From UHGV virus genome UHGV-0026213: a DNA stretch of 64,000 nt; one strand, 5' to 3'. Below the pieces are notes generated by a model. The model searched no databases and was not told where the DNA came from. It saw only the letters and a list, made by a program, of their open reading frames with translations. The DNA is from a virus. This document shows positions 1,723 through 43,040 of the stretch, piece by piece. The position numbers were made by a program, and so were the translations under genes. The first letter of the stretch is position 1, and each line of letters begins with the position of its first letter.

Positions 1723-3498
1723 GTGTTTAAAGATGCAATCAAAAAGCTTAAAGAGAGTGGTAAAATAGTACCCTTTAACCGTGCGATTGCGGAAGGAGTC
1801 GGTTATACACAAGCCAAAGATGGTATTCACGATCGTGTACATCGTATCTTGAAACGTGAGCTAGATTACCATCCTGTAGAGAACCCTCGTGTTCCTGAAG
1901 GCTTGGCCGTGTTGGGTGTTCGTTTAATGTCGCCGTTCGAAACTTTTATCTATAAGCTGTCTCGTTCAGAGAGCAGCAGGATGGATAAGCGTCGTGGTGT
2001 GATGTCTATCGCGAATACCGATGCGTATATGGTCATGTCGTCGTTCCGTATTCCTGGAGACTCAAGACCAATCTCAAGACCGATTAACTTGCCTTTCATT
2101 CGTCGTGGTGGGTTGATGAACTATTACGGAACAACGTATCATGTTGCACCTGTTATTCATCAGCCGGGTATCTGTCGTGAGCACGGTGGGGTGTTTGTTA
2201 ATTTTGACTTTAAACGTAAAGCGTCATTAAAATTCTGTAAGCATCCGGTACGGATTTTAGTGAACGGGAAGAAAGAAGAATTGTTCTTGCCCGGAACAAA
2301 CAATTTGTTTAAAGCCAAAAACGCCACACATCCTGACACGGACGAAAAGCCGTTAATGTACTGGCTATTCGGACGTTATGGATTTAAGGAAGCCATCAAA
2401 CGTTATACTGGCGTGGATGTGGAGATATATCCTGCATTCAAAGTACCTGAAATCGATCTCGATAAAAAAGTAGTAATCAGTTCAGGTGAGCCTAAACATA
2501 ATCGGTCGATTATGTACGTAGTGACGGTTCCTGCAGAGGCTTTACCAAATCTCGATAAAGCGGGATGGGATCAAAACGAGCACTTATTACTCGTGGCGAT
2601 TTCTGCATTCTTTAAAGCAGCGCACTATTATTGCGGAAAGCAAGCGATTAAAAACGGCAACGTTGTTCCTTTACCGCCGTTGTTTACCGCGATTAACGAA
2701 CTTGCAATGGAGGACGATGTTGTAAACCTGAATTCCTCCGCAATTTGGCGGGAGATTTTGGGGAGAAGTATTGTTGGACTTAAACCGTCCGATATTGAAC
2801 TGGCACACAGCATGACGAAACACTATACGGAGTGTGAACGCTACGTTAACTCAACATTCCGTGGTGAGTTAATGATGTCAGATCCCGATATCCCGGACGA
2901 TATGGATATGTTTGATTTCTTCTGGTACGCGACGAAGTTGATGGTGAGAACACGCCTTACGAAACAAGGTGATATTCCGTCAATGTATGGAAAACGTCTG
3001 ACCGTAACAGATTACCTGTTATTGGGTGAGCGTGGCTTTACGCCTACCATCGCTGCGATTCGTTTCCACTTGGGACAAACGGAAAATCGAACACCGGAGT
3101 CTTGTGCGAACATGATACGCAGTGCGTTGAATAAAGACATTGTAACCAGCCTGGTATTACGCAACATTACCGGTAATGGTGGTGTAAGTTATTTCAACGC
3201 TTCTACCGAGTCTATGGTACTGGGGGTTTCAACCCATGCTATCAGCCAGACAGAAACAGAATCAAAACGTAACAGCAAAGGCGGTAAGACGGTTAACCTT
3301 AATGACCGGACAAAACATGCCTCTGCATCTCATCTGGAATGTGGTAACGTGTATTACATTCCGAAATCATCACCGTTCAAATCGGGTATTCTCAATCCGT
3401 ATATGAAGACGAACACCCAACTGGTGATGGTACGTAATCCAAAACTCAACGAGTTGATCCAAGCAACCGAAGAAGACATTGCGAAGATTGGCCGTTAA
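1723..3498 (+). CDS. hypothetical protein (591 aa)
   Basis: Long ORF; GTG start 6 nt after AAGGAG (1711-1716); no recognisable motif. Confidence 0.7.
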   Translation: MFKDAIKKLKESGKIVPFNRAIAEGVGYTQAKDGIHDRVHRILKRELDYHPVENPRVPEGLAVLGVRLMSPFETFIYKLSRSESSRMDKRRGVMSIANTDAYMVMSSFRIPGDSRPISRPINLPFIRRGGLMNYYGTTYHVAPVIHQPGICREHGGVFVNFDFKRKASLKFCKHPVRILVNGKKEELFLPGTNNLFKAKNATHPDTDEKPLMYWLFGRYGFKEAIKRYTGVDVEIYPAFKVPEIDLDKKVVISSGEPKHNRSIMYVVTVPAEALPNLDKAGWDQNEHLLLVAISAFFKAAHYYCGKQAIKNGNVVPLPPLFTAINELAMEDDVVNLNSSAIWREILGRSIVGLKPSDIELAHSMTKHYTECERYVNSTFRGELMMSDPDIPDDMDMFDFFWYATKLMVRTRLTKQGDIPSMYGKRLTVTDYLLLGERGFTPTIAAIRFHLGQTENRTPESCANMIRSALNKDIVTSLVLRNITGNGGVSYFNASTESMVLGVSTHAISQTETESKRNSKGGKTVNLNDRTKHASASHLECGNVYYIPKSSPFKSGILNPYMKTNTQLVMVRNPKLNELIQATEEDIAKIGR

Positions 3499-3537
3499 CG
3501 AATTAAATTATAGAAAAGACGTAACAGGAGTATAATA

Positions 3538-5178: not shown

Positions 5179-5222
5179 GGGGCTTCGTGCCCCCTAATCT
5201 ATAGACACCACAGGACAGTATC

Positions 5223-5471: not shown

Positions 5472-5480
5472 TCGCCCCAC

Positions 5481-5514
5481 AGGAGAGCTTCGGCTCTCCT
5501 CCTTTATTTTTATT
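5481..5514 (+). terminator. rho-independent terminator
   Basis: AGGAGAGC-TTCG-GCTCTCCT hairpin followed by CCTTTATTTTTATT. Confidence 0.75.
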
Positions 5515-5558
5515 CCCCAATTTATTATAGCCGCCCACTATAGTGAGGGAATGAGGAA

Positions 5559-31010: not shown

Positions 31011-31571
31011 GTGACTACTTACGTACCTGATTTAAGTCTGGCCTCAGCCGAATTAGTGGTCGCTTTAATCAACCACGATAACGGTTCACGGTTGTCTCTA
31101 AACGAAATCCGTATTAGCAACACTATGGCAAACCCGTCCCCGACCACTTCGCGTCGTAACACACTGACAGAGATTACAAAAATCAGGAAACCTGATGGTG
31201 CTTCTGTGGTTGTTTATTACGACCGTTTGGATGCGGACGAAGTGTTAGCGTCTGAACCTATTTTGATTTCGTTAGACGGTACTGAAGACAACCTTCGTGA
31301 CATTTTAGGTGTTGTAAATGAATTCTGCGGAACGAACTTACAACCCGAAGATTTACGTGCTGCAGATATCACCTTAGGTAACGAACCCATTGCTGTTAAC
31401 GTTGCTGACGATTCTCCTGCGTGGATGAATGCGTTTATGGTGACGTTATTCGATACAACAGAACGAGCATTAGCAAACGAAGATGATGCGATCTTCTGTA
31501 TTGGTGATGATGCCGTTCTTACCTTTGAGGTTCCAGATGACGACACAGCTGAAGAAAACCCGGCTACATGA
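31011..31571 (+). CDS. fibre-associated protein, paralogue of the 37776-38291 gene
   Basis: GTG start 6 nt after GGGAGG; shares TPDLSL...ALIN.D, IYYNRL, CG.NLQ.EDL and VLTF motifs with the 37776 gene; each precedes a fibre gene. Confidence 0.55.
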   Translation: MTTYVPDLSLASAELVVALINHDNGSRLSLNEIRISNTMANPSPTTSRRNTLTEITKIRKPDGASVVVYYDRLDADEVLASEPILISLDGTEDNLRDILGVVNEFCGTNLQPEDLRAADITLGNEPIAVNVADDSPAWMNAFMVTLFDTTERALANEDDAIFCIGDDAVLTFEVPDDDTAEENPAT

Positions 31572-31773
31572 ACTTGACCGTTTTACCGGTAATGGAGGCC
31601 AAAGCAAACTTTTATCAAAACTTAACAATCCCAAATCATGAAGCGCGGAGTTGGGCATCACTTTCACGTTAGAAGATGATGGATTAAAACCAGTATAATA
31701 ATCCGCTTATAAAAATGTTGAGGGGTAAAACACTTCCTCAGATCTTTTAGCTCCCGATAGAGAATTAAATATC

Positions 31774-34700
31774 ATGGCTAAAGCGGTAAAGAAAATTCGT
31801 TTACACGATTTACGTCCATACACCGGGGATATCGGTGAAGGCGTTTTACTTTTTTCGAAAGACGAAAGGGATTATCAGTTACCTGTCCGCGAGATTGTTG
31901 CGGATATTGACACCGTCAGAAACGCGGTTGCTGACGCACAAACGGCGGCGGCCAAATCGCAACAGTCTGCAACAGAAGCCACACAAGCAAAAGACTTAGC
32001 AGAAACAGCGAAGCAACAAACTGACACGTTAGCTTCCACAGTTAGCGAGCAAGCGGGAACCGTTGCCACTAAAACTGCCGAGGTTAGCAAAAAACACGCT
32101 GAAGTTTTAGCCGCGAAAACGGCCGTAGATACTGTATTACAATCGGTAAATGAGAAAGCTCAAGCTGTCGCCACAAGCGAACAATCGGTGACGGCTGCAG
32201 CGGCTGATGTAACTAAGAAAGCAGAAACGGTTACGCAACAGGCCGGACAAGTTCAACAGACGGCTACCGGTGTCGAGAATACTGCGGCTTCAGTTGAGGC
32301 CAGTAAGGGCGCAGTGGAGAAGATTGCTGCACAGGTCGCGAAAGATAAAGAAAGTTCAGAAGGCGCAGCAACACGTTCGGAGTCAGCTGCCTTACGTGCG
32401 GAGAAAATCGCTGCGCAGGGCTTAATCGACGCCAGTACGACCGGTAAAGGTATCGTTAAACTTAACGATACACTGACTAGCGAATCCGTGACTGAGGCCG
32501 CCACACCGTCCACGGTTAAACAGCTGAATGACGAATTACAGTTAAAAGCCAATAAACATTCGCCGAATTTTACGGGTAAACCGTCATCCCCAACACCCCC
32601 GAAGGACTCGAACGACACGAGCATCTCCACAACGGCCTGGGTGCGTGACGCGATTGCGGAACTGGTTGGTTCTTCACCCGAGACGTTAAATACCTTAGCG
32701 GAATTAGCTGAGGCGTTAGGTAATGACCCTAACTTCGCAACAACGATTACTGGGGAACTTGCGCAGAAACAACCTCTCAGTCCGTTGCTCACCGCCATTG
32801 CCGCAGTCACCACAGCGGCAAATAAACTCATGTATTTCACTGGCAGTAATAAAGTCCGATTAACGGATTTTACAGAAACGGCTAGATCCTTGTTAGCGAA
32901 AGGGTCAACTGCGGATATCATCAATTTCTTGGGATTAAGAACCACCGTAGATAAAGCGAATGGTGCGCTACAGAAAAACTCTAACGGCGCTGATATCCCA
33001 GATAAAGAAACTTTTGCTCGAAACATCGGCCTATCTCCTGATACCTATCTGCGTTTCCGTGGCGAAATGCCTGTAGATGCTGATATTAACACATTTGCTC
33101 CAGATGCCAATTACACAGGAACGTGGGCTAAGTCGACATCAACCAATGCGTCGATGGCAAAACACTTCCCAGAAGACGGTGCGGTCGGTTATCTGGAAGT
33201 GTATAAAGCCGGTAATTACAGCGGTGCGCAACGTTTTACCTGTCGTAATGGTAACGTGTACAACCGTATGTTGTCAGGTGCGTGGAATGGTGCCAATGGA
33301 CCCTGGTCGCCGTGGAGAATGGTAACTACTGGTGTACGTCCGTTATCTACCTCTATAGACTTGAACTCTCTGGGTGGCGCTGAGCATATGGGTAACTGGC
33401 GAAACTCAAGCAGTTCGCTGGCTGTGTTTAGCAGACATTACCCTGAAGAAGGTGGTGGTGCGCAAGGCGTACTAGAAGTAATGGAAGGTGGTCTTTTCGG
33501 ACGGTTGCAGCGATACACTACGCGTCGTGGTACAATGTATGTTCGTGGTTTGACTGCAACGTGGGATTCATCAAACCCACAATGGGAAGATTGGATTCAG
33601 GTTGGTTATCAGACTGACGGTGCTTTCTTTAAAGCCAATTTTAACGATCTCGTTAAACCGGGACGTTTCAGTGTCACTGGTGAAGCAACTAATGGCCCAC
33701 TTACCGGTTCTTCTGGTGAAACCATATTAGGTGTTTGTGAAGTTACCTTACGCTTAGACGGTACAGGGGTCGAACAGAATTATACTACATACGGTACGGG
33801 TGTAGAAACTAAAGGTCGTAAATTCCAACGTATCCGTACGGGTAACGCTTGGAGCGATTGGCGTGAGGTTTTCACATCGTATTCGCTTCCGCTGGTATTA
33901 GGTATCGGCGGTGAACGTGCGAATGTTGATCCTTTAGACTGGCAAACCTATGACTTTAAACCAGGTGAGTTAATCTGTACGCCGCTTAACACCATGAAAA
34001 ACATTCCTGCGGGAATGGATTGGGGTGTTATTGACGGTAACTTAGTTAGCATTCTGGTTGGTCCATCAGATGGCGCATCCTCAGCCCGGAGTATGTTGGT
34101 TTGGCGTAGTACGGTGTCTACTGCCAACTATCGATTCTTTGCAGTACGTATCGCTGGTGAGAAAGGTAGTCGTACGATTACGCCACGACAGATGCCTGTA
34201 TTGAATGCAGCACACACCTGGGCAGAAAAACAGACCTTTGCAAAAGGGTTAGCAGGCGAGTTAACAGGCAATGCTTCAACCGCAACGAAATTAAAGACCG
34301 CACGTAGAATTGGTGGAGTCGCTTTCGACGGTAGTGGTGATATTAACCTCCCGGGTGTTAACCAACAAGGTAATCAAAACACCACGGGTAATGCCGGTAC
34401 AGCCACTAAACTTCAAACTGCCAGAAATATTAACGGTGTGAGATTCGATGGTTCTGCTGACATCAATATCAACACCTTGGTGGGTCGTGGTCGGGTTACT
34501 GCACTAACCGGTTCAAACAAAGGTACGCCTGGTATTCAGATGTACGAAGTTTACAATAACGGTTATCCGACCGCTTATGGTAACTTGCTGCATTTGGGCG
34601 GTTCTACTGCGCTAGGTGAAGGTGAACTGTTAATCGGTTGGTCGGGCACGAGTGGTGCGCACGCACCCGTTTATATTCGTAGTCGACGCGATACAGCGGA

Positions 34701-36375
34701 TGCGCCGTGGTCAGATTGGGCACAAGTTTATACTGCCCGTGATAGTATTCCTGGTGTAAATACCACCGGTAATCAAGATACTACTGGTAACGCTGCTACC
34801 GCGACGAAACTGAAAACTGCTCGCAGAATCGGGGGCGTTACCTTTGACGGTACTGGGGATATCAATTTACCGGGGGTTAACCAGCAAGGTAACCAGAATA
34901 CGACAGGTAATGCAGCAACCGCCACTAAGTTACAAACACCACGTAAGATCGGTGGTGTTAACTTTGACGGTTCGCAAGACATTAGTCTGCCCGGTGTGAA
35001 CCAAACCGGTAACCAATCGACTACGGGGAATGCTGCGACTGCGACTAAGCTCCAGACTGCGCGAAATATAGGTGGCGTAGCTTTTGATGGTACCAAAGAC
35101 ATCAACTTACCTGGCGTAAACCAAACGGGTAATCAGTCGACCACCGGAAACGCGGCCACGGCAACGAAGTTGCAAACTGCAAGGACCATCAACGGTGTTC
35201 CGTTTGATGGCACTAAAAACATCGAAATAACGGCTGAAAGTTTAAACCTTGGGCAAACTGTAGAATTGGCCGGTGGGTCATTGCAGAAGAAACAGAACGG
35301 TGCCGATATTCCAGATAAAAGGAAATTCTTACGAAATGTTGGTGCCCCGAACACAACAACCATATCTTTTAATGGTGGTGCCGGATGGTTCAAACTGGCA
35401 ACTGTAACGATGCCACAAGCCAGTTCCGTGGTTTACATAAGCCTGATTGGTGGTGCAGGGTTTAACGTTGGTTCCCCGCATCAAGCAGGTATCTCTGAGC
35501 TGGTTCTGCGTGCAGGAAATGGGAATCCAAAAGGTATTACTGGTGCGTTATGGCGACTGACCTCAGTCGGCTTCACTAATTTTGCATGGGTGAATACATC
35601 TGGTGACACTTACGATATTTATGTTGAAATAGGTAATTACGCCACCGGTGTTAATATTCAGTGGGACTACACTAGTAATGCCAACGTAACGATTCACACA
35701 TCGCCAAGTTATACGGCTAATAAACCCGCAGGACTAACAGACGGTACCGTCTATCTGATTTACAGCACACACAACAAACCTAACGCTGGTGACGTCGGTG
35801 CGTTACCGTCAGGGGGCGGTACTATAGGTGGCGATTTAACCGTTAACGGTAAATTGGTCACTAAGTACCCTGATTTTCGAATCGCTTACGGCAACTACGG
35901 CTTTATGTTACGTAACGATGGTGCCAATACCTATTTCTTAGTAACCGACGCCGGACAAGCTGCAACGGGTTCCTGGAACGGACTACGTCCGTTGTATTTT
36001 AATAACGCTAACGGCCAAGTAACCTTTGGTCATAACGTTACTGGCAGCGGTAACGGTTCGTTTAACGACGTACAGATTCGTTCTGACCGTCGTAACAAAC
36101 GTAATCTGGTGAAACTGGATAAAGCTTTGGATCGGTTAGAGTTACTAACCGGTTATTTGTACGAAATTCAGCATCCGGATGACGGTTGGCAAACCTCTGT
36201 AGGTCTAATTGCTCAAGACGCATTAGAAGCGTTACCTGAACTTGTGTCTGAGGATGATGATGCCATTTCAGGCGAAAAACGTTTACGTCTAAACTACAAT
36301 GGCGTTATTGCGCTGTTAGTAGAGGGTATGAAAGCGTTGCGTCAAGAGGTTAACGAAATTAAAGGAAGATCCTAA
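31774..36375 (+). CDS. long tail fibre protein with tandem fibre repeats and C-terminal intramolecular chaperone (peptidase S74-like) domain
   Basis: 1533 aa; Ala/Thr/Gln-rich N-terminal shaft; at least six copies of TTGNAATATKLQTAR.I.GV.FDG..DINLPGVNQ; C-terminus SDRRNKRNLVKLDKALDRLELLTGYLYE... resembles the auto-cleaving chaperone of endosialidase and T5 L-shaped fibre. Confidence 0.85.
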   Translation: MAKAVKKIRLHDLRPYTGDIGEGVLLFSKDERDYQLPVREIVADIDTVRNAVADAQTAAAKSQQSATEATQAKDLAETAKQQTDTLASTVSEQAGTVATKTAEVSKKHAEVLAAKTAVDTVLQSVNEKAQAVATSEQSVTAAAADVTKKAETVTQQAGQVQQTATGVENTAASVEASKGAVEKIAAQVAKDKESSEGAATRSESAALRAEKIAAQGLIDASTTGKGIVKLNDTLTSESVTEAATPSTVKQLNDELQLKANKHSPNFTGKPSSPTPPKDSNDTSISTTAWVRDAIAELVGSSPETLNTLAELAEALGNDPNFATTITGELAQKQPLSPLLTAIAAVTTAANKLMYFTGSNKVRLTDFTETARSLLAKGSTADIINFLGLRTTVDKANGALQKNSNGADIPDKETFARNIGLSPDTYLRFRGEMPVDADINTFAPDANYTGTWAKSTSTNASMAKHFPEDGAVGYLEVYKAGNYSGAQRFTCRNGNVYNRMLSGAWNGANGPWSPWRMVTTGVRPLSTSIDLNSLGGAEHMGNWRNSSSSLAVFSRHYPEEGGGAQGVLEVMEGGLFGRLQRYTTRRGTMYVRGLTATWDSSNPQWEDWIQVGYQTDGAFFKANFNDLVKPGRFSVTGEATNGPLTGSSGETILGVCEVTLRLDGTGVEQNYTTYGTGVETKGRKFQRIRTGNAWSDWREVFTSYSLPLVLGIGGERANVDPLDWQTYDFKPGELICTPLNTMKNIPAGMDWGVIDGNLVSILVGPSDGASSARSMLVWRSTVSTANYRFFAVRIAGEKGSRTITPRQMPVLNAAHTWAEKQTFAKGLAGELTGNASTATKLKTARRIGGVAFDGSGDINLPGVNQQGNQNTTGNAGTATKLQTARNINGVRFDGSADININTLVGRGRVTALTGSNKGTPGIQMYEVYNNGYPTAYGNLLHLGGSTALGEGELLIGWSGTSGAHAPVYIRSRRDTADAPWSDWAQVYTARDSIPGVNTTGNQDTTGNAATATKLKTARRIGGVTFDGTGDINLPGVNQQGNQNTTGNAATATKLQTPRKIGGVNFDGSQDISLPGVNQTGNQSTTGNAATATKLQTARNIGGVAFDGTKDINLPGVNQTGNQSTTGNAATATKLQTARTINGVPFDGTKNIEITAESLNLGQTVELAGGSLQKKQNGADIPDKRKFLRNVGAPNTTTISFNGGAGWFKLATVTMPQASSVVYISLIGGAGFNVGSPHQAGISELVLRAGNGNPKGITGALWRLTSVGFTNFAWVNTSGDTYDIYVEIGNYATGVNIQWDYTSNANVTIHTSPSYTANKPAGLTDGTVYLIYSTHNKPNAGDVGALPSGGGTIGGDLTVNGKLVTKYPDFRIAYGNYGFMLRNDGANTYFLVTDAGQAATGSWNGLRPLYFNNANGQVTFGHNVTGSGNGSFNDVQIRSDRRNKRNLVKLDKALDRLELLTGYLYEIQHPDDGWQTSVGLIAQDALEALPELVSEDDDAISGEKRLRLNYNGVIALLVEGMKALRQEVNEIKGRS
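34268..35235 (+). repeat. tandem ~33-codon tail-fibre repeats (Phage_fiber_2-like), codon-diversified
   Basis: Repeated NTTGNAATATKLQTAR...FDG..DINLPGVNQ units in two blocks; amino-acid identity is high but synonymous codons differ between copies. Confidence 0.75.
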
Positions 36376-37157
36376 TGGCAGTTGTCGGCGTAGGTGGTTG
36401 GATTGGTTCTTCAGCAAAAGCTGAAGCTGGTAACGAATGGATGTCTGGCGCGATGCGCACACTTGGTGTGCCGGTTCCAGGCTGGATGTCGCAATTGGCG
36501 GGAAAATCAAAAGAGGTCCATTATTCTATTGGTGCTAACCATAGCTATAATAAGGATACTCTTATTAACTATTTACGTTCTTTAGGCTCTACTGCTGTCG
36601 TTGTGACCATTACAGGGGATTTAGTGTCTTATAGTAGCGGGGTTCCTTGTTTAGAATTCCCTAGCAATCTTCCAAATTCGTATATTACACTCATCATCAA
36701 TCCTGGGGTTACAGTATACGGCAGAGGAGGCAACGGCGGTTCTAACTCACCAGGCGGTGCAGGTGGAACCGCAATACAGAACGGAATAGGAAACAGACTG
36801 CGTATAACCAACCGTGGCGCTATTGCCGGAGGCGGTGGCGGCGGTGGCGGCGGTAACAGGGGTAGACTAATATTTGGTGGTGGCGGTGGTCGCCCATTCG
36901 GTGCTGGTGGGTCTTCCTCTCATATGAGTTCCGGTGCGGCTGCTGGTACTATTTCCGCTCCTGGTAAAGGATCTGTTGGTGAGGGGTCTCTTAGTGCATA
37001 TACAGGCGGTTCGGGTGGTAATGTCGGTGCTGCTGGAGGAAGATGTAATACTCATGGTAACGGTACAGAATATAACGGCGGAGCAGCTGGTGCAGCTGTT
37101 ACTGGTAATGCGCCAAGATGGGACGCAGTAGGTGCAATATACGGTTCACGTGTTTAA
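36375..37157 (+). CDS. glycine-rich protein, possible receptor-binding adhesin (T-even gp38-like)
   Basis: 260 aa with poly-Gly tracts (GGGGGGGGGNRG, FGGGGGRPFGAGG); start overlaps the fibre stop; N-terminus conserved with the next gene. Confidence 0.5.
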   Translation: MAVVGVGGWIGSSAKAEAGNEWMSGAMRTLGVPVPGWMSQLAGKSKEVHYSIGANHSYNKDTLINYLRSLGSTAVVVTITGDLVSYSSGVPCLEFPSNLPNSYITLIINPGVTVYGRGGNGGSNSPGGAGGTAIQNGIGNRLRITNRGAIAGGGGGGGGGNRGRLIFGGGGGRPFGAGGSSSHMSSGAAAGTISAPGKGSVGEGSLSAYTGGSGGNVGAAGGRCNTHGNGTEYNGGAAGAAVTGNAPRWDAVGAIYGSRV

Positions 37158-37173
37158 TTAAAAAAGAGGGTAG

Positions 37174-37677
37174 ATGGGGGTAGCGTCAGGATGGGTCGGT
37201 TCTTCGGCCAAGAACGAAACGGGCGAACAATGGATGAGCGCTGCGGGTAGTAAATTAGGATTGGGTAGACCTTTTATGATGAGCCAAATGGTGGGACGAT
37301 CTATGGGCTGTAAAATTGCAACTGCTGCATATAGCGATTCTTTAGGTAAGAAATGGGGAGCAGTAGGGCCAAGTTGGCCGTTAAACCAGAAAAATCAGGG
37401 GACCATTCAAAACGCGGGTAACTGCGGGGTGGGAACTTTAGTAGGTATTGAGTTACAGTTAACGACGATAGTTGCCAACGCAAAGCCTACTTTAGCGGTT
37501 TACTTACAAGGAGGCAGAGCCTCTAACATTACCGTAAATTTAGGTGGCAACACCTGCGCGCTGACCTATCAGCAGGTTATTAACGGACAGCATTATTACT
37601 GGACTAATAACATCAGCGCTGCGTTCCAAAACGTGATGAAATCGACAGGCGCACTACGTGATTTGAGAATTAGCTAA
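37174..37677 (+). CDS. paralogue of the Gly-rich adhesin-like protein
   Basis: N-terminus MGVASGWVGSSAKNETGEQWMSAAG parallels MAVVGVGGWIGSSAKAEAGNEWMSGAM of the preceding gene. Confidence 0.5.
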   Translation: MGVASGWVGSSAKNETGEQWMSAAGSKLGLGRPFMMSQMVGRSMGCKIATAAYSDSLGKKWGAVGPSWPLNQKNQGTIQNAGNCGVGTLVGIELQLTTIVANAKPTLAVYLQGGRASNITVNLGGNTCALTYQQVINGQHYYWTNNISAAFQNVMKSTGALRDLRIS

Positions 37678-37711
37678 TTATTTTCAAGTCATAGTGCTTG
37701 AAAACATAATC

Positions 37712-37721
37712 GGGGGGGGGG
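37712..37721. repeat. homopolymeric G10 tract (intergenic)
   Basis: Ten consecutive G, 55 nt upstream of the ATG at 37776, between TTGAAA (37698-37703) and a TGAAAT -10-like hexamer. Confidence 0.9.
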
Positions 37722-37775
37722 TGAAATGCTTTAGCCAACATTTTATGACTCCCCTAACCGTTGGAGGTAAACTTT

Positions 37776-38291
37776 ATGGGGCAATTCACACCAGATTTAT
37801 CATTAACTTCAACTAACATGGTTATATCGCTGATCAACTACGACCTTCAGCTCGATCTGCAAGAAAACGAGGTTGAGTTCAGCAACGTAAATCCTACTGA
37901 AGAAATGAATCGTGATACCACTGCCGTTGTAAAGATTAAGCGTCCTGGAAACAGAACGTTGCAGATCTATTACAACCGTTTAACCGCAGAGCGGTGGTTA
38001 AACCAGCAACCTATTCTGGTAAAAGTAATCGGGGAAGGGTTTACCACACACGATTTAATCGAAGCGATTAACGCAGCTTGTGGCAGTAACTTACAAGCTG
38101 AAGATCTAACAGATAATTCATTTACTGTAGGAAAAGACGCGGTAACGTTGCAGGTATCGCCTAGTTCACTAGGTTATAAAGGTCAATTCTCTGTTCTGGT
38201 TTTCGGTAACGGTGAAGAAGCCGCAGTAACAAAAGACGACGATTTAATCGTTACCGCAGATAATCGTGTATTAACTTTCGGAGATCATTAA
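37776..38291 (+). CDS. fibre-associated protein, paralogue of the 31011-31571 gene
   Basis: ATG after GGAGG; conserved motifs with the 31011 gene; precedes the second fibre/tailspike gene. Confidence 0.55.
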   Translation: MGQFTPDLSLTSTNMVISLINYDLQLDLQENEVEFSNVNPTEEMNRDTTAVVKIKRPGNRTLQIYYNRLTAERWLNQQPILVKVIGEGFTTHDLIEAINAACGSNLQAEDLTDNSFTVGKDAVTLQVSPSSLGYKGQFSVLVFGNGEEAAVTKDDDLIVTADNRVLTFGDH

Positions 38292-38305
38292 TGGCTAAAA
38301 CTTAA

Positions 38306-38575
38306 GTGGCGTTGGTATTTTTTACATCGATAACAATCTATCCGCAAATACTCTACTTATCTGAAAGTAACGAATTACTGGACGTTAAATATTACGTTGC
38401 GGATGCTTCCACAAAAGCATCGGTGGTAATGTTGACTATCTTGGTAACAATGTCTAAAGTCCATGGTGTTACTATTGATATCAACAATCTCGATGAAGTC
38501 CCTATTACGGAAGAACAAACCCCGGTTAAATTTATCGTTGGTACTGCCTTATCACAGAACGGCATGTCGCGCTAA
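38306..38575 (+). CDS. small hypothetical ORF
   Basis: 89-aa ORF from a GTG start with no clear RBS; may be shorter or spurious. Confidence 0.3.
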   Translation: MALVFFTSITIYPQILYLSESNELLDVKYYVADASTKASVVMLTILVTMSKVHGVTIDINNLDEVPITEEQTPVKFIVGTALSQNGMSR

Positions 38576-38610
38576 CCGGAAGAGCATTGGTTTAAAAATT
38601 GGAGGTTACA

Positions 38611-38748
38611 ATGGTTCAACCAATTGGAAAGAAACGTATCCATGAACTCGACAATTTCTCTGGCGATCTCAAAGGTGCGGTAGTTCTCCTTTCTAAGGAA
38701 GAAAAAGAATATAAAATTGATATTGCAGAACTTCAAGGGGGGGGGTGA
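38611..38748 (+). CDS. N-terminal virion-anchor segment of the tailspike, in a different frame from the esterase body
   Basis: ATG 5 nt after GGAGG; encodes MVQPIGKKRIHELDNFSGDLKGAVVLLSKEEKEYKIDIAELQGGG, homologous to the first 45 aa of the 31774 fibre; frame ends at TGA just after the G9 tract. Confidence 0.5.
   Translation: MVQPIGKKRIHELDNFSGDLKGAVVLLSKEEKEYKIDIAELQGGG
38737..38745. repeat. homopolymeric G9 tract at the tailspike frame junction
   Basis: Nine consecutive G; one extra G would fuse the upstream anchor frame to the esterase frame. Confidence 0.9.
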
Positions 38749-40736
38749 CGGAACCGGATTATTACTTCGTGATCCCTATAGCCGGGCAATCTAATGCGAT
38801 GAGTTATGGTGAAGGATTGCCTCTACCAGCGACGTTGGACGCTCCCGATCCGCGGATTAAACAGATGGCACGCCGTACGAAGGTAACGCCTAATGGAGCT
38901 GATTGTAAGTATAACGACGTCATTCCAGCGGATCACTGTCTGCACGACGTGCAAGATATGTCCGTATTCTCGCATCCCAATGCCAATTTGGACAAAGGTG
39001 AATACGGATGTGTGGGTCAAGGTCTACACATCGCGAAGCGTCTTCTCCCGTATATTCCTAGCAACGCTGGTATCTTACTAGTACCCTGCGCACGCGGTGG
39101 TTCTGCTTTTACAGGTGGTGCAGAAGGTACCTTCGATGACGCCACAGGAGCCTCTGCGGCGTCATCGGTATGGGGGGTGGAAAAACCGCTTTATAAAGAT
39201 TTAGTTAGCCGGACCAAAAAAGCTCTGGAGGTTAATCCTAAAAATAAACTCCTGGCTGTAGTGTGGATGCAGGGAGAGTATGATCTGACTAAAGTAGGTT
39301 ACGCACAACAACCAGCGCTATTTAACGCTATGGTAGAGCGTTTCCGAACTGATCTCTCTGACCATCTCCCTCAGATGCCCGAGTACGACACCGCCGAAGT
39401 ACCATGGATCTGCGGGGACACTACCTACTATTGGAAGGAAAAATATCCTGCTCAATATGAAACCATATACGGTAATTATCGTAACAATGAACAAAAAAAT
39501 ATCTTTTTTGTTCCATTCATGTACGACGATAATGGCCAACGTGTACCGACTAATGATCCCACTGACGATCCTGATATCGCCGCTGCTGCTTACTACGGTG
39601 CTGCCTCCCGTAGTAATAAAAACTGGACGTCTGAAACAAGGAATAGCCATTTCAGTTCTTGGGCTCGACGCGGTATTATCTCAGAGAGAATAGCTGCTGA
39701 GATATTATCAAGAACAGCGATTGGTGCAATGCTCATGACGAAGAACGACACTAAAGAGCTCAAAGACAATATGAATGTGGTAAGAAGCTATACCCCATTA
39801 GTAGAGTCTGTGGGTTATAACGGACGTCGTGGAGATGGTTCCCTGAAAGGGCAAGGTTGGAACAATACCATTGATTGTAACGTAACCGTGCAAAAATCTG
39901 AGGATGGAAATGGACATTTCGTCGAATTAAGAAAGGCTGTAAGTAACAAACCTTGGAATGTAACCAGGTCAATGGCAACAGCTGCAGACATGATACGTTA
40001 CGGTGGACGTCTGACCGTTACTTTTAGACTAAAAGGTGATTTAGCAGCAAATCGTTTCGGGTTAGGACTTTATTGGCGTATCTCCGCGTCCGACCTACCT
40101 TCTGGTACTACACTTGCTGACGCTAGTGTGGCTGATACGAACCCGTACCTAATGTCTTTTTTCTTACAGACCGACGCTACGAATCTTTATCTGATGCATC
40201 ATAAAAAGCAGAATGTGCAATTAGGAACTTTCGGTGCGTACGATAATAACTGGCATACGCTTGAAATCATTTATCCGGGTGACAATAAAATCAAAGTCAC
40301 GCCTGTGCTTGACGGCAAGAATGGCACTCCATTTGATCTGGCGAACAGTACAGCTAAGACCAATTTGAACGAATTGGTTCTGACAGATATTACGAAAGTT
40401 ATTGCCTACGATATCGATATTTCGAAGTTTGAGATCTCGGTCAATCGTGATTCTGGTAGTATAGTGTTATCTGAGGAAGATGTATCGTCTTATGTGTATT
40501 TCCCAGCCACCAACCGTGGCGGCCAACTTACTATTCCTGATCTAGAATATAGCGTGGGTAGAAATATTCAGATCGTGGCAAATAAGGCTGGTTCGATCAC
40601 CGTTAAACCGGAAAATTCAAACGTTCTCATCACTCCAAAGAGTGGGACGGAAGGTCTTGCCAAACCCATTGAGACCAATGAAAGTATTACGCTAATGCAA
40701 GTTGGCTCCGATGGTAAAAGCTGGGTAGTTATTTAA
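38745..40736 (+). CDS. tailspike/fibre body with SGNH-type esterase (sialate O-acetylesterase-like) domain
   Basis: 663-aa ORF; N-terminal YFVIPIAGQSNAMSYG carries the GQSN nucleophile motif of SASA/SGNH esterases; lacks its own anchor domain in frame. Confidence 0.7.
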   Translation: MTEPDYYFVIPIAGQSNAMSYGEGLPLPATLDAPDPRIKQMARRTKVTPNGADCKYNDVIPADHCLHDVQDMSVFSHPNANLDKGEYGCVGQGLHIAKRLLPYIPSNAGILLVPCARGGSAFTGGAEGTFDDATGASAASSVWGVEKPLYKDLVSRTKKALEVNPKNKLLAVVWMQGEYDLTKVGYAQQPALFNAMVERFRTDLSDHLPQMPEYDTAEVPWICGDTTYYWKEKYPAQYETIYGNYRNNEQKNIFFVPFMYDDNGQRVPTNDPTDDPDIAAAAYYGAASRSNKNWTSETRNSHFSSWARRGIISERIAAEILSRTAIGAMLMTKNDTKELKDNMNVVRSYTPLVESVGYNGRRGDGSLKGQGWNNTIDCNVTVQKSEDGNGHFVELRKAVSNKPWNVTRSMATAADMIRYGGRLTVTFRLKGDLAANRFGLGLYWRISASDLPSGTTLADASVADTNPYLMSFFLQTDATNLYLMHHKKQNVQLGTFGAYDNNWHTLEIIYPGDNKIKVTPVLDGKNGTPFDLANSTAKTNLNELVLTDITKVIAYDIDISKFEISVNRDSGSIVLSEEDVSSYVYFPATNRGGQLTIPDLEYSVGRNIQIVANKAGSITVKPENSNVLITPKSGTEGLAKPIETNESITLMQVGSDGKSWVVI

Positions 40737-40742
40737 TTTAAA

Positions 40743-40786
40743 CCGTAGGATGGACTAAGTCCATCCTACGGTTTTTATATTTTTTC
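40743..40786 (+). terminator. rho-independent terminator
   Basis: CCGTAGGATGG-ACTAAG-TCCATCCTACGG hairpin followed by TTTTTATATTTTTT. Confidence 0.85.
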
Positions 40787-40830
40787 TCAGATATATATTA
40801 CCTAGGAGAGAGTGAAATTTACATTCACTC
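40781..40830 (+). promoter_or_regulatory. conserved promoter-like block plus inverted repeat
   Basis: TTTTTCTCAGATATATATTACCTAGGAGAGAG then GAGTGAA...TTCACTC; same block as at 20841 and 44998. Confidence 0.4.
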
Positions 40831-40859
40831 CATTAGTTATAGCCGAAAAGGAGGATTAG

Positions 40860-42997: not shown

Positions 42998-43040
42998 TAT
43001 AGCCCCTCTCAGGAAATCCTGAGAGGGGGGAGAAAGAAAG

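Follow-up and report, generated by a model that had tools for sequence, protein, structure and literature searches.

The run of ten G residues upstream of the DUF7941 gene in an uncultured jumbo phage (hereafter G10) appears to form one arm, homopolymeric and hypermutable, of a conserved RNA hairpin between two cistrons (HP2), with a length effect that is probably small; we assign this model a probability of roughly 0.55. The slippage-prone tract would make up the outer 5' arm of a stem-loop in the sense transcript, between the genes of a second gp38-type adhesin (adhesin-2) and of DUF7941. The homopolymer would slide in register against the partner sequence UGACUCCCCU, so that ±1 G hardly alters the hairpin, which would explain why a hypermutable run is tolerated at position 37712. 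The hairpin itself would work at the RNA level, in processing or stability of the transcript or as a leaky terminator, since it occupies the same position as a canonical terminator in the phages SPN3US and Asesino, but without a U run. A change of one G would tune the expression of the downstream genes weakly at most, and the true on/off switch of the module would be a coding G tract 1 kb downstream, which joins a fibre anchor to an esterase.

The stretch of DNA analysed here (64,000 nt, hereafter the window; Table 1) comes from a phage genome of about 225 kb, with related metagenomic contigs of 220–228 kb. Its structural region shows about 75% nucleotide identity to Erwinia phage Asesino and Salmonella phage SPN3US, the nearest cultured relatives, both of which are now placed in Chimalliviridae (nucleus-forming, RNA-polymerase-encoding jumbo phages). 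Nucleotide searches of INPHARED revealed no cultured phage that covers the intergenic tract region, the matches being limited to the C-terminal part of gp38 and to the esterase. An exact-pattern scan of viral contigs for the flanks of the tract gave no match, a search of viral contigs with the esterase returned a single unrelated and distant match, and alignment of DUF7941 against the contigs of the species genome set found none, hence there is no prophage copy in that set.

The terminator scan identified no strong terminator between 31774 and 40740; the first one past the start of the fibre gene lies directly downstream of the esterase gene and is followed by a copy of a putative early-promoter motif. 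Both genes that flank G10 are likely to lie within one long late transcription unit (about 31774–40736), which we infer to be a single operon. The homologues of the DUF7941 protein, SPN3US gp122 and Asesino gp139, are each encoded just upstream of the gene of a tail-associated protein, and a sequence search of the PDB with DUF7941 found nothing.

The fibre carries the Gp34_trimer and Phage_fibre_2 domains and a C-terminal S74 chaperone, and together with the two tandem gp38-type adhesins it forms a T-even-style (gp37/gp38) receptor module (31774–37677) in a jumbo phage of the Chimalliviridae type. One of these adhesins shows 80–90% DNA identity to the gp38 genes of Krischvirus and Tequatrovirus coliphages, a likeness that indicates exchange between different phage families by horizontal transfer and hints at a host similar to E. 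coli. A short ORF (31537–31640, MTTQLKKTRLHELDRFTGNGG...), located immediately before the gene of the 1533-aa fibre, resembles the N-terminal fibre-anchor module but ends after 34 codons; it is probably what remains of a fibre gene that was lost or exchanged. The 89-aa ORF downstream of DUF7941 gives a weak match to the C-terminus of the long phrog_33169 family (E = 2e-4) and is missing from the related locus L030, where the esterase gene directly follows that of DUF7941; it is possibly a remnant of an exchanged fibre gene.

Table 1. Positions of the genes, tracts, hairpins and sequence motifs discussed in the text.
Feature	Position	Strand	Basis or remark
RNA polymerase beta subunit homologue	1723-3498		homologue of Asesino gp94, so annotated
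Fibre, 1533 aa	31774-36375		domain and family searches
gp38-type adhesin	36375-37157		glycine-rich motifs; domain and family searches
Second gp38-type adhesin (adhesin-2), 167 aa	37174-37677	+	Gp38_N domain, phrog_1121; TAA stop at 37675-37677
G5 at adhesin-2 start	37176-37180		directly after ATG
HP1, AT-rich inverted repeat UUUUCAAGU...GCUUGAAAA	37681-37704	+	contains TTGAAA; 37681-37689 paired with 37696-37704
TTGAAA	37698-37703		in 3' arm of HP1
HP2, predicted RNA stem-loop, 44 nt	37712-37755	+	folding
G10	37712-37721	+	intergenic
TGAAAT	37722-37727		in 5' arm of HP2
TATG	37744-37747		in 3' arm of HP2
Shine-Dalgarno GGAGG	37763-37767		precedes ATG 37776
DUF7941 virion structural protein, 171 aa	37776-38291	+	domain and family searches
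89-aa ORF	38306-38575		family search
45-aa fibre-anchor module ORF	38611-38745	+	ends in G9
G9	38737-38745		coding
SASA-family carbohydrate esterase body, 663 aa	38745-40736	+	SASA and DUF6645 domains; frame differs from that of the anchor
Canonical terminator, strong	40740-40774	+	16-bp stem, then T run
AT-rich motif AGATATATWTTACYTAGG, four copies	20849, 26159, 40789, 45002	+	always after a terminator and before a gene
TATAG, intergenic examples	3499-3537, 5179-5222, 5472-5558, 40737-40859, 42998-43040	+	intergenic regions

Long G runs and their variation in length

G10 ends 55 nt upstream of the DUF7941 start codon and lies in an 18-nt spacer between TTGAAA and TGAAAT; these distances and coordinates, given earlier in a reading of the window made from its letters (the sequence-only reading), proved correct on recheck. 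That reading also pointed to two long G tracts close together in DNA otherwise poor in G runs, and the counts bear it out. The second tract, G9, is located 1025 nt downstream of G10, and the window (44.7% GC) contains four G runs and one C run of at least 6 nt, but none of at least 7 nt besides these two. Two G/C runs of at least 9 nt are observed in the 64 kb compared with 0.088 expected (analytic expectation, first-order Markov), therefore the G10/G9 pair is not a product of chance. The same count in about 113 kb of related loci found all G/C runs of at least 7 nt confined to the same receptor-binding module of about 1.6 kb. G10 and G9 thus carry the marks of polyG contingency loci, i.e. at least 7 G, an excess over composition and a concentration in the region of host-recognition genes.

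The length of the intergenic tract was compared among contigs that encode exactly the DUF7941 protein of the window (ten assemblies from ten different runs, 98.7–100% identical to the window over 1.4–3.5 kb; L019 is the window's own source contig). The tract is covered by eight near-identical assemblies, where it is G8 in one, G9 in four and G10 in three. True indels in these alignments occur only in G runs, and all of them fall at the two long tracts except a change from G5 to G4 at the start of adhesin-2 in L024. More distant relatives (73–95% protein identity) exhibit G4, G5, G6, G9, G10 and G13 as well as the interrupted versions GAG7, GAG10, G5AG4 and GGAG5, and in a comparison of 13 loci the five closest pairs (96–98.5% identical downstream) each differ in the tract. 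The closest metagenomic relative, L013 (CYGL01000001.1), was set aside for the comparison of G10 with G9, because the assembly is error-prone: compared with the window it shows many 1-nt insertions (e.g. at 37250, 37290, 37298, 37318, 37893 and 37961) and broken ORFs, which makes it unreliable for homopolymer lengths. The tract changes in length far faster than its flanks between natural populations. Absence of such variation would have spoken against the "programmed variable locus" proposed in the sequence-only reading; as a description of the module, this proposal is upheld by the length variation and by the confinement of long G runs, while the promoter-spacer mechanism attached to it is not (see below).

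All these lengths come from consensus assemblies rather than reads, and one could ask whether the differences are sequencing or assembly errors in a homopolymer that is stable in nature. Ten-G homopolymers are hard to sequence, L013 is a clear case of an error-prone assembly, and three of the ten near-identical contigs begin at the intergenic tract or within 6 nt of it, which is no more than suggestive of heterogeneity within populations. An artefact is nevertheless scarcely credible, as the ten short-read assemblies from different runs show no indel outside G runs, A7 and T runs included, differences of −2, −3 and +2 occur, and the coding tract favours lengths that keep the reading frame, as expected of biology and not of error.

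This coding tract, G9, behaves differently from G10 with respect to reading frames. The 45-aa module upstream of the esterase body resembles the N-terminal part of the 1533-aa fibre and a gene of L003 (at 5510); it ends in a Gly3 linker encoded by G9, and its ORF, as sequenced, stops at TGA 38746–38748. Addition of one G (G10) yields a single anchor-esterase ORF of 708 aa, whereas removal of one G leads to a stop, and anchor and esterase are in frame only at G7 or G10, being called as one protein of 707–708 aa in near-identical contigs. The esterase aligns with its PHROG profile from position 65–68 onwards, which fits a missing N-terminus. Among the near-identical assemblies, the esterase tract is G10 in five, G7 in two, G9 in two (three with L019) and G11 in one; the frame is thus closed in 7 of 10 (G7/G10) and broken in 3 (G9/G11), and the window carries the out-of-frame, "off" allele. 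The G9 tract is likely to be an on/off phase switch of a fibre-anchored esterase. A relative encodes the same Gly3 linker as GGGGGTGGC, without a long run, therefore the protein does not demand the homopolymer. A third run follows the ATG of adhesin-2 directly: it is G5 in the window and G4 in the near-identical L024 (at about 15), G8 in L003 (4390–4399, in frame) and G9 in L009 (2388–2398, frameshifted). In L012, a run of ten G is found at the position of the ribosome-binding site, and in L010 a C9 run forms the arm of a hairpin upstream.

No such switch of reading frame is seen at the intergenic tract: the inspection of sequence and frames at G8, G9, G10 and G11 revealed no ORF fused or broken through it. 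An ORF from GTG 37694 through the tract was considered and rejected, as it meets TGA or TAG at G8, G9 and G10 and does not join the frame of the gene at 37776.

The predicted hairpin and its possible roles

Two hairpins are predicted between the adhesin-2 and DUF7941 genes. HP1 (−7.4 kcal/mol, z = −2.6) is kept by every relative with the same adhesin 3' end. In HP2, the 5' arm consists of the G run and UGAAAUG, and the 3' arm of CAUUUUA and UGACUCCCCU. The fold of minimum energy sets the ten G opposite this pyrimidine-rich 10-nt sequence, with eight G:C or G:U pairs and a 2x2 internal loop. The predicted energy is −19.1 kcal/mol for the window and ranges from −14.3 to −24.5 kcal/mol for the eight other variants; 7 of 9 variants are more stable than at least 198 of 200 shuffled sequences, while the z-score of the window itself is modest (−2.05). 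In the alignment of 13 sequences, 95.6% of the cells assigned to HP2 pairs can pair, compared with 51–69% in slid controls. Owing to the G:U pairs, the sense strand is more stable than the antisense strand by 5.5–9 kcal/mol, an asymmetry suggestive of an RNA structure in the transcript of coding-strand sense.

The architecture AAUC, G run, stem, loop, stem and C run is predicted in all relatives but L005, which has unrelated upstream sequence. The upper stem occurs in at least five sequence versions, each of them self-complementary (e.g. UGAAAUG/CAUUUUA, AUAAAAU/AUUUUAU and AUGU/ACGU), and the A residues that interrupt the G run in some relatives are mostly still paired (A:U in L013 and L002). 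Covariation in HP2 is not significant, as the columns vary very little within a given hairpin type: only a single pair differs at both of its positions, and 483 of 500 shuffles reach the observed score. Support for HP2 was taken instead from the recurrence of different self-complementary versions and from the strand asymmetry.

The comparison with intrinsic terminators gave a mixed result. HP2 is a GC-rich stem-loop, but a U-rich tract 3' of the stem is missing: the window has UAACCGUUGG at this place, and relatives have AAUCAUAGG or AACCGUAGG. HP2 is not among the terminators reported by the scan, and the true terminators of the window have T7–T10. A terminator on the minus strand was also considered and rejected, as the antisense fold is much weaker. 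The Rfam scan of 37000–39000 returned chance-level matches only, all of them far below the gathering scores.

If the hairpin tolerates a change of length, the tract might still be a functional non-coding contingency tract, whose length switches or grades the expression of DUF7941 and the esterase by a mechanism specific to the phage. Such a mechanism might involve a leaky terminator or attenuator of variable strength, a site of RNase processing or the upstream context of a promoter for the phage's own RNA polymerase. Most genomes belonging to two hairpin lineages, and every near-identical assembly, keep the tract long (9–10 and up to 13 nt), although relatives with G4–G6 fold an equally good hairpin, so the additional G residues are not needed for pairing; the tract also shares a module with two coding G tracts that toggle reading frames. 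Folding of an in-silico series from G3 to G15 predicted that with 5 or fewer G CUCC pairs with the Shine-Dalgarno GGAG, but also that the architecture stays constant from G6 to G15. Strong selection for an unbroken run is difficult to reconcile with the A-interrupted tracts in 4 of 13 relatives and with the G4–G6 versions. The 3' arm of HP2 contains in addition TATG, the core of the phiKZ late promoter (PMC7598289), which in many relatives is TACG, TATC or absent and is not enriched in intergenic DNA (3.2 vs 2.5 per kb); a late promoter of the phiKZ type in the hairpin arm was rejected on these grounds. Taken together, we regard a regulatory role of the tract length as unlikely, though worth keeping in view.

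A bolder version of this idea treats all three G tracts (adhesin-2 start, intergenic hairpin and anchor-esterase linker) as a system of combinatorial bet-hedging in host recognition, in which G10 would be regulatory and set the output of DUF7941 and the esterase via the hairpin or via a promoter of the phage RNA polymerase. We consider it quite unlikely; if it were true, G10 would be without precedent among phages as a non-coding element of phase variation in expression level. A point against the hairpin-arm model favoured here is that the tract clusters at 9–10 nt across lineages about 15% apart in the DUF7941 protein, which could reflect selection on length, i.e. a spacing function.

The pattern of sequence identity around the tract raises the question of a role at the level of DNA. 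The AATC, the G run and the hairpin could mark the 3' border of an exchangeable adhesin cassette, with the homopolymer promoting or marking the exchange. Identity is indeed uncoupled across the tract (L004 and L008 are 64% identical upstream and 98.5% downstream, L003 and L009 94% upstream and 91% downstream), an identical adhesin-2 protein is found beside at least four hairpin versions and different downstream genes, and in L002 and L004 an unrelated upstream sequence with a different adhesin 3' end joins exactly at AATC and the G run. However, any conserved stretch beside a variable cassette would produce the same pattern, nothing points to the homopolymer as a driver of exchange, and the G:U pairing specific to the sense strand is left unexplained, all of which makes a recombination junction an improbable explanation of G10.

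In L001 (3911–3962), an ATG located 4 nt past the G run opens an upstream ORF of 14 codons, MFLANILRLPNHRR, which extends across the hairpin and terminates within the Shine-Dalgarno sequence of a DUF7941 gene that starts with GTG. A homologous upstream ORF is present in L003, L004, L006, L008, L009, L011, L012 and L034; the equivalent ATG of the window (37726) is followed by a stop after one codon. Translational coupling is possible in the lineages that possess this ORF.

Promoter-like hexamers and transcription in the phage lineage

The sequence-only reading had proposed that G10 sets the −35/−10 spacing of a phase-variable promoter, TTGAAA-N18-TGAAAT; taken as a sigma-70 promoter, it would be used by the host RNA polymerase and vary in strength with tract length. 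Both hexamers and the 18-nt spacing are present, the natural lengths G8, G9 and G10 correspond to spacers of 16, 17 and 18 nt, and TTGAAA is conserved in most relatives. On the other hand, TGAAAT exhibits G at position 2 of the −10 element, where sigma-70 reads an A by base flipping (PMC7598289), and the consensus scan omits the pair. Sigma-70-like sites are not enriched in this region (26 found vs 28.2 expected in shuffled sequence), and both hexamers are accounted for as hairpin arms, TTGAAA in HP1 and TGAAAT in HP2. Nor do the elements persist where the tract or the hairpin does: neither L002 nor L004 has TTGAAA, other hairpin types have ATAAAAT, TAAGAT or ATGT in place of TGAAAT, and the implied spacer in other relatives would be 14, 20 or 21 nt. 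Finally, the relatives of this phage in Chimalliviridae encode RNA polymerases, and the window contains an RNA polymerase beta homologue and an early motif similar to that of phiKZ. With a −10 element that lacks the key A, hexamers that belong to hairpins, elements that are not conserved and a lineage that has its own RNA polymerases, the promoter-spacer mechanism is very improbable, and we prefer the hairpin arm. Such a case calls for caution, since promoter-like hexamers around a homopolymer turned out to be explained by two hairpins.

The early motif is the AT-rich AGATATATWTTACYTAGG, of which the window contains 4 copies vs 0.17 expected. A location after a terminator and before a gene is the pattern of early promoters for the virion RNA polymerase in the style of phiKZ, which develops without the host RNA polymerase (PMC7598289). 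We take AGATATATWTTACYTAGG to be the probable early promoter of this lineage, read by the virion RNA polymerase. Each copy is followed by an inverted repeat, GTGAGAG...CTCTCAC. Another motif, TATAG, is 3.2-fold enriched in intergenic DNA (2.21 vs 0.69 per kb), often 20–35 nt upstream of start codons, and is a candidate element of another promoter class.

Comparison with known systems

The analysis describes a widespread lineage of uncultured gut jumbo phages in which every long G run lies within a mosaic module for receptor binding. This module combines a gp37/gp38 fibre, a second adhesin and a fibre-anchored sialate-type esterase, and in natural variants the esterase is in or out of frame. 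It provides a concrete setting in which bet-hedging by a nucleus-forming phage, on host range or on glycan processing, can be tested. For the annotation of such genomes, it means that split esterase genes are probably phase variants and not pseudogenes. Among the papers searched, none reports such tracts in Chimalliviridae.

Phase-variable promoters with homopolymer spacers are a feature of Neisseria and Haemophilus. The resemblance to G10 lies in the poly-G between promoter-like hexamers and in the natural variation by ±1–2 nt; the differences are that here the −10-like hexamer lacks the essential A, that the hexamers are parts of hairpins and are not conserved in all relatives, and that the phage family transcribes with its own RNA polymerases.

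The terminator hairpins that precede SPN3US gp122 and Asesino gp139 resemble HP2 in their location, directly before the ribosome-binding site of the homologous gene, in GC-richness and in similar size. Unlike HP2, which in the window is followed by UAACCG without a U run, they are followed by T8–T9, and their stems are of mixed sequence and not homopolymeric.

To our knowledge, experimental proof that poly-G tracts diversify host recognition is limited to Campylobacter phages. In the Fletchervirus phages of Campylobacter, hypermutable polyG tracts occur in the genes of receptor-binding proteins (Sorensen et al. 2021, Cell Rep 35:109214, as far as that work is relayed in PMC10877375 and PMC12633550). 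Set against what these two sources relay, the lineage studied here is similar in that G runs of 7–11 nt are concentrated in the host-recognition module of a lytic phage, that their length differs between otherwise near-identical genomes, and that the esterase (G7/9/10/11) and adhesin-2 start (G4/5/8/9) tracts toggle reading frames. It differs in that G10 is non-coding and situated inside the arm of an RNA hairpin, and in that its carrier is a jumbo phage of enterobacterial type (Chimalliviridae lineage, about 45% GC), known from consensus assemblies.

Simple-sequence-repeat contingency loci have also been described in the coliphages T2 and T4, in a preprint that makes the case for such loci as a general property of phages (Gomez, Barrick and Waters 2025, PMC12633550). 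As in T2 and T4, where a few of the repeats are intergenic, slippage of homopolymers leads to reversible frameshifts and to diversity in the population (PMC12633550). In the BASEL coliphages, repeats are under-represented in tail-fibre genes, and those of T2 and T4 are scattered over all gene classes (PMC12633550), whereas the long G runs of the lineage described here are all located in the receptor-binding module.
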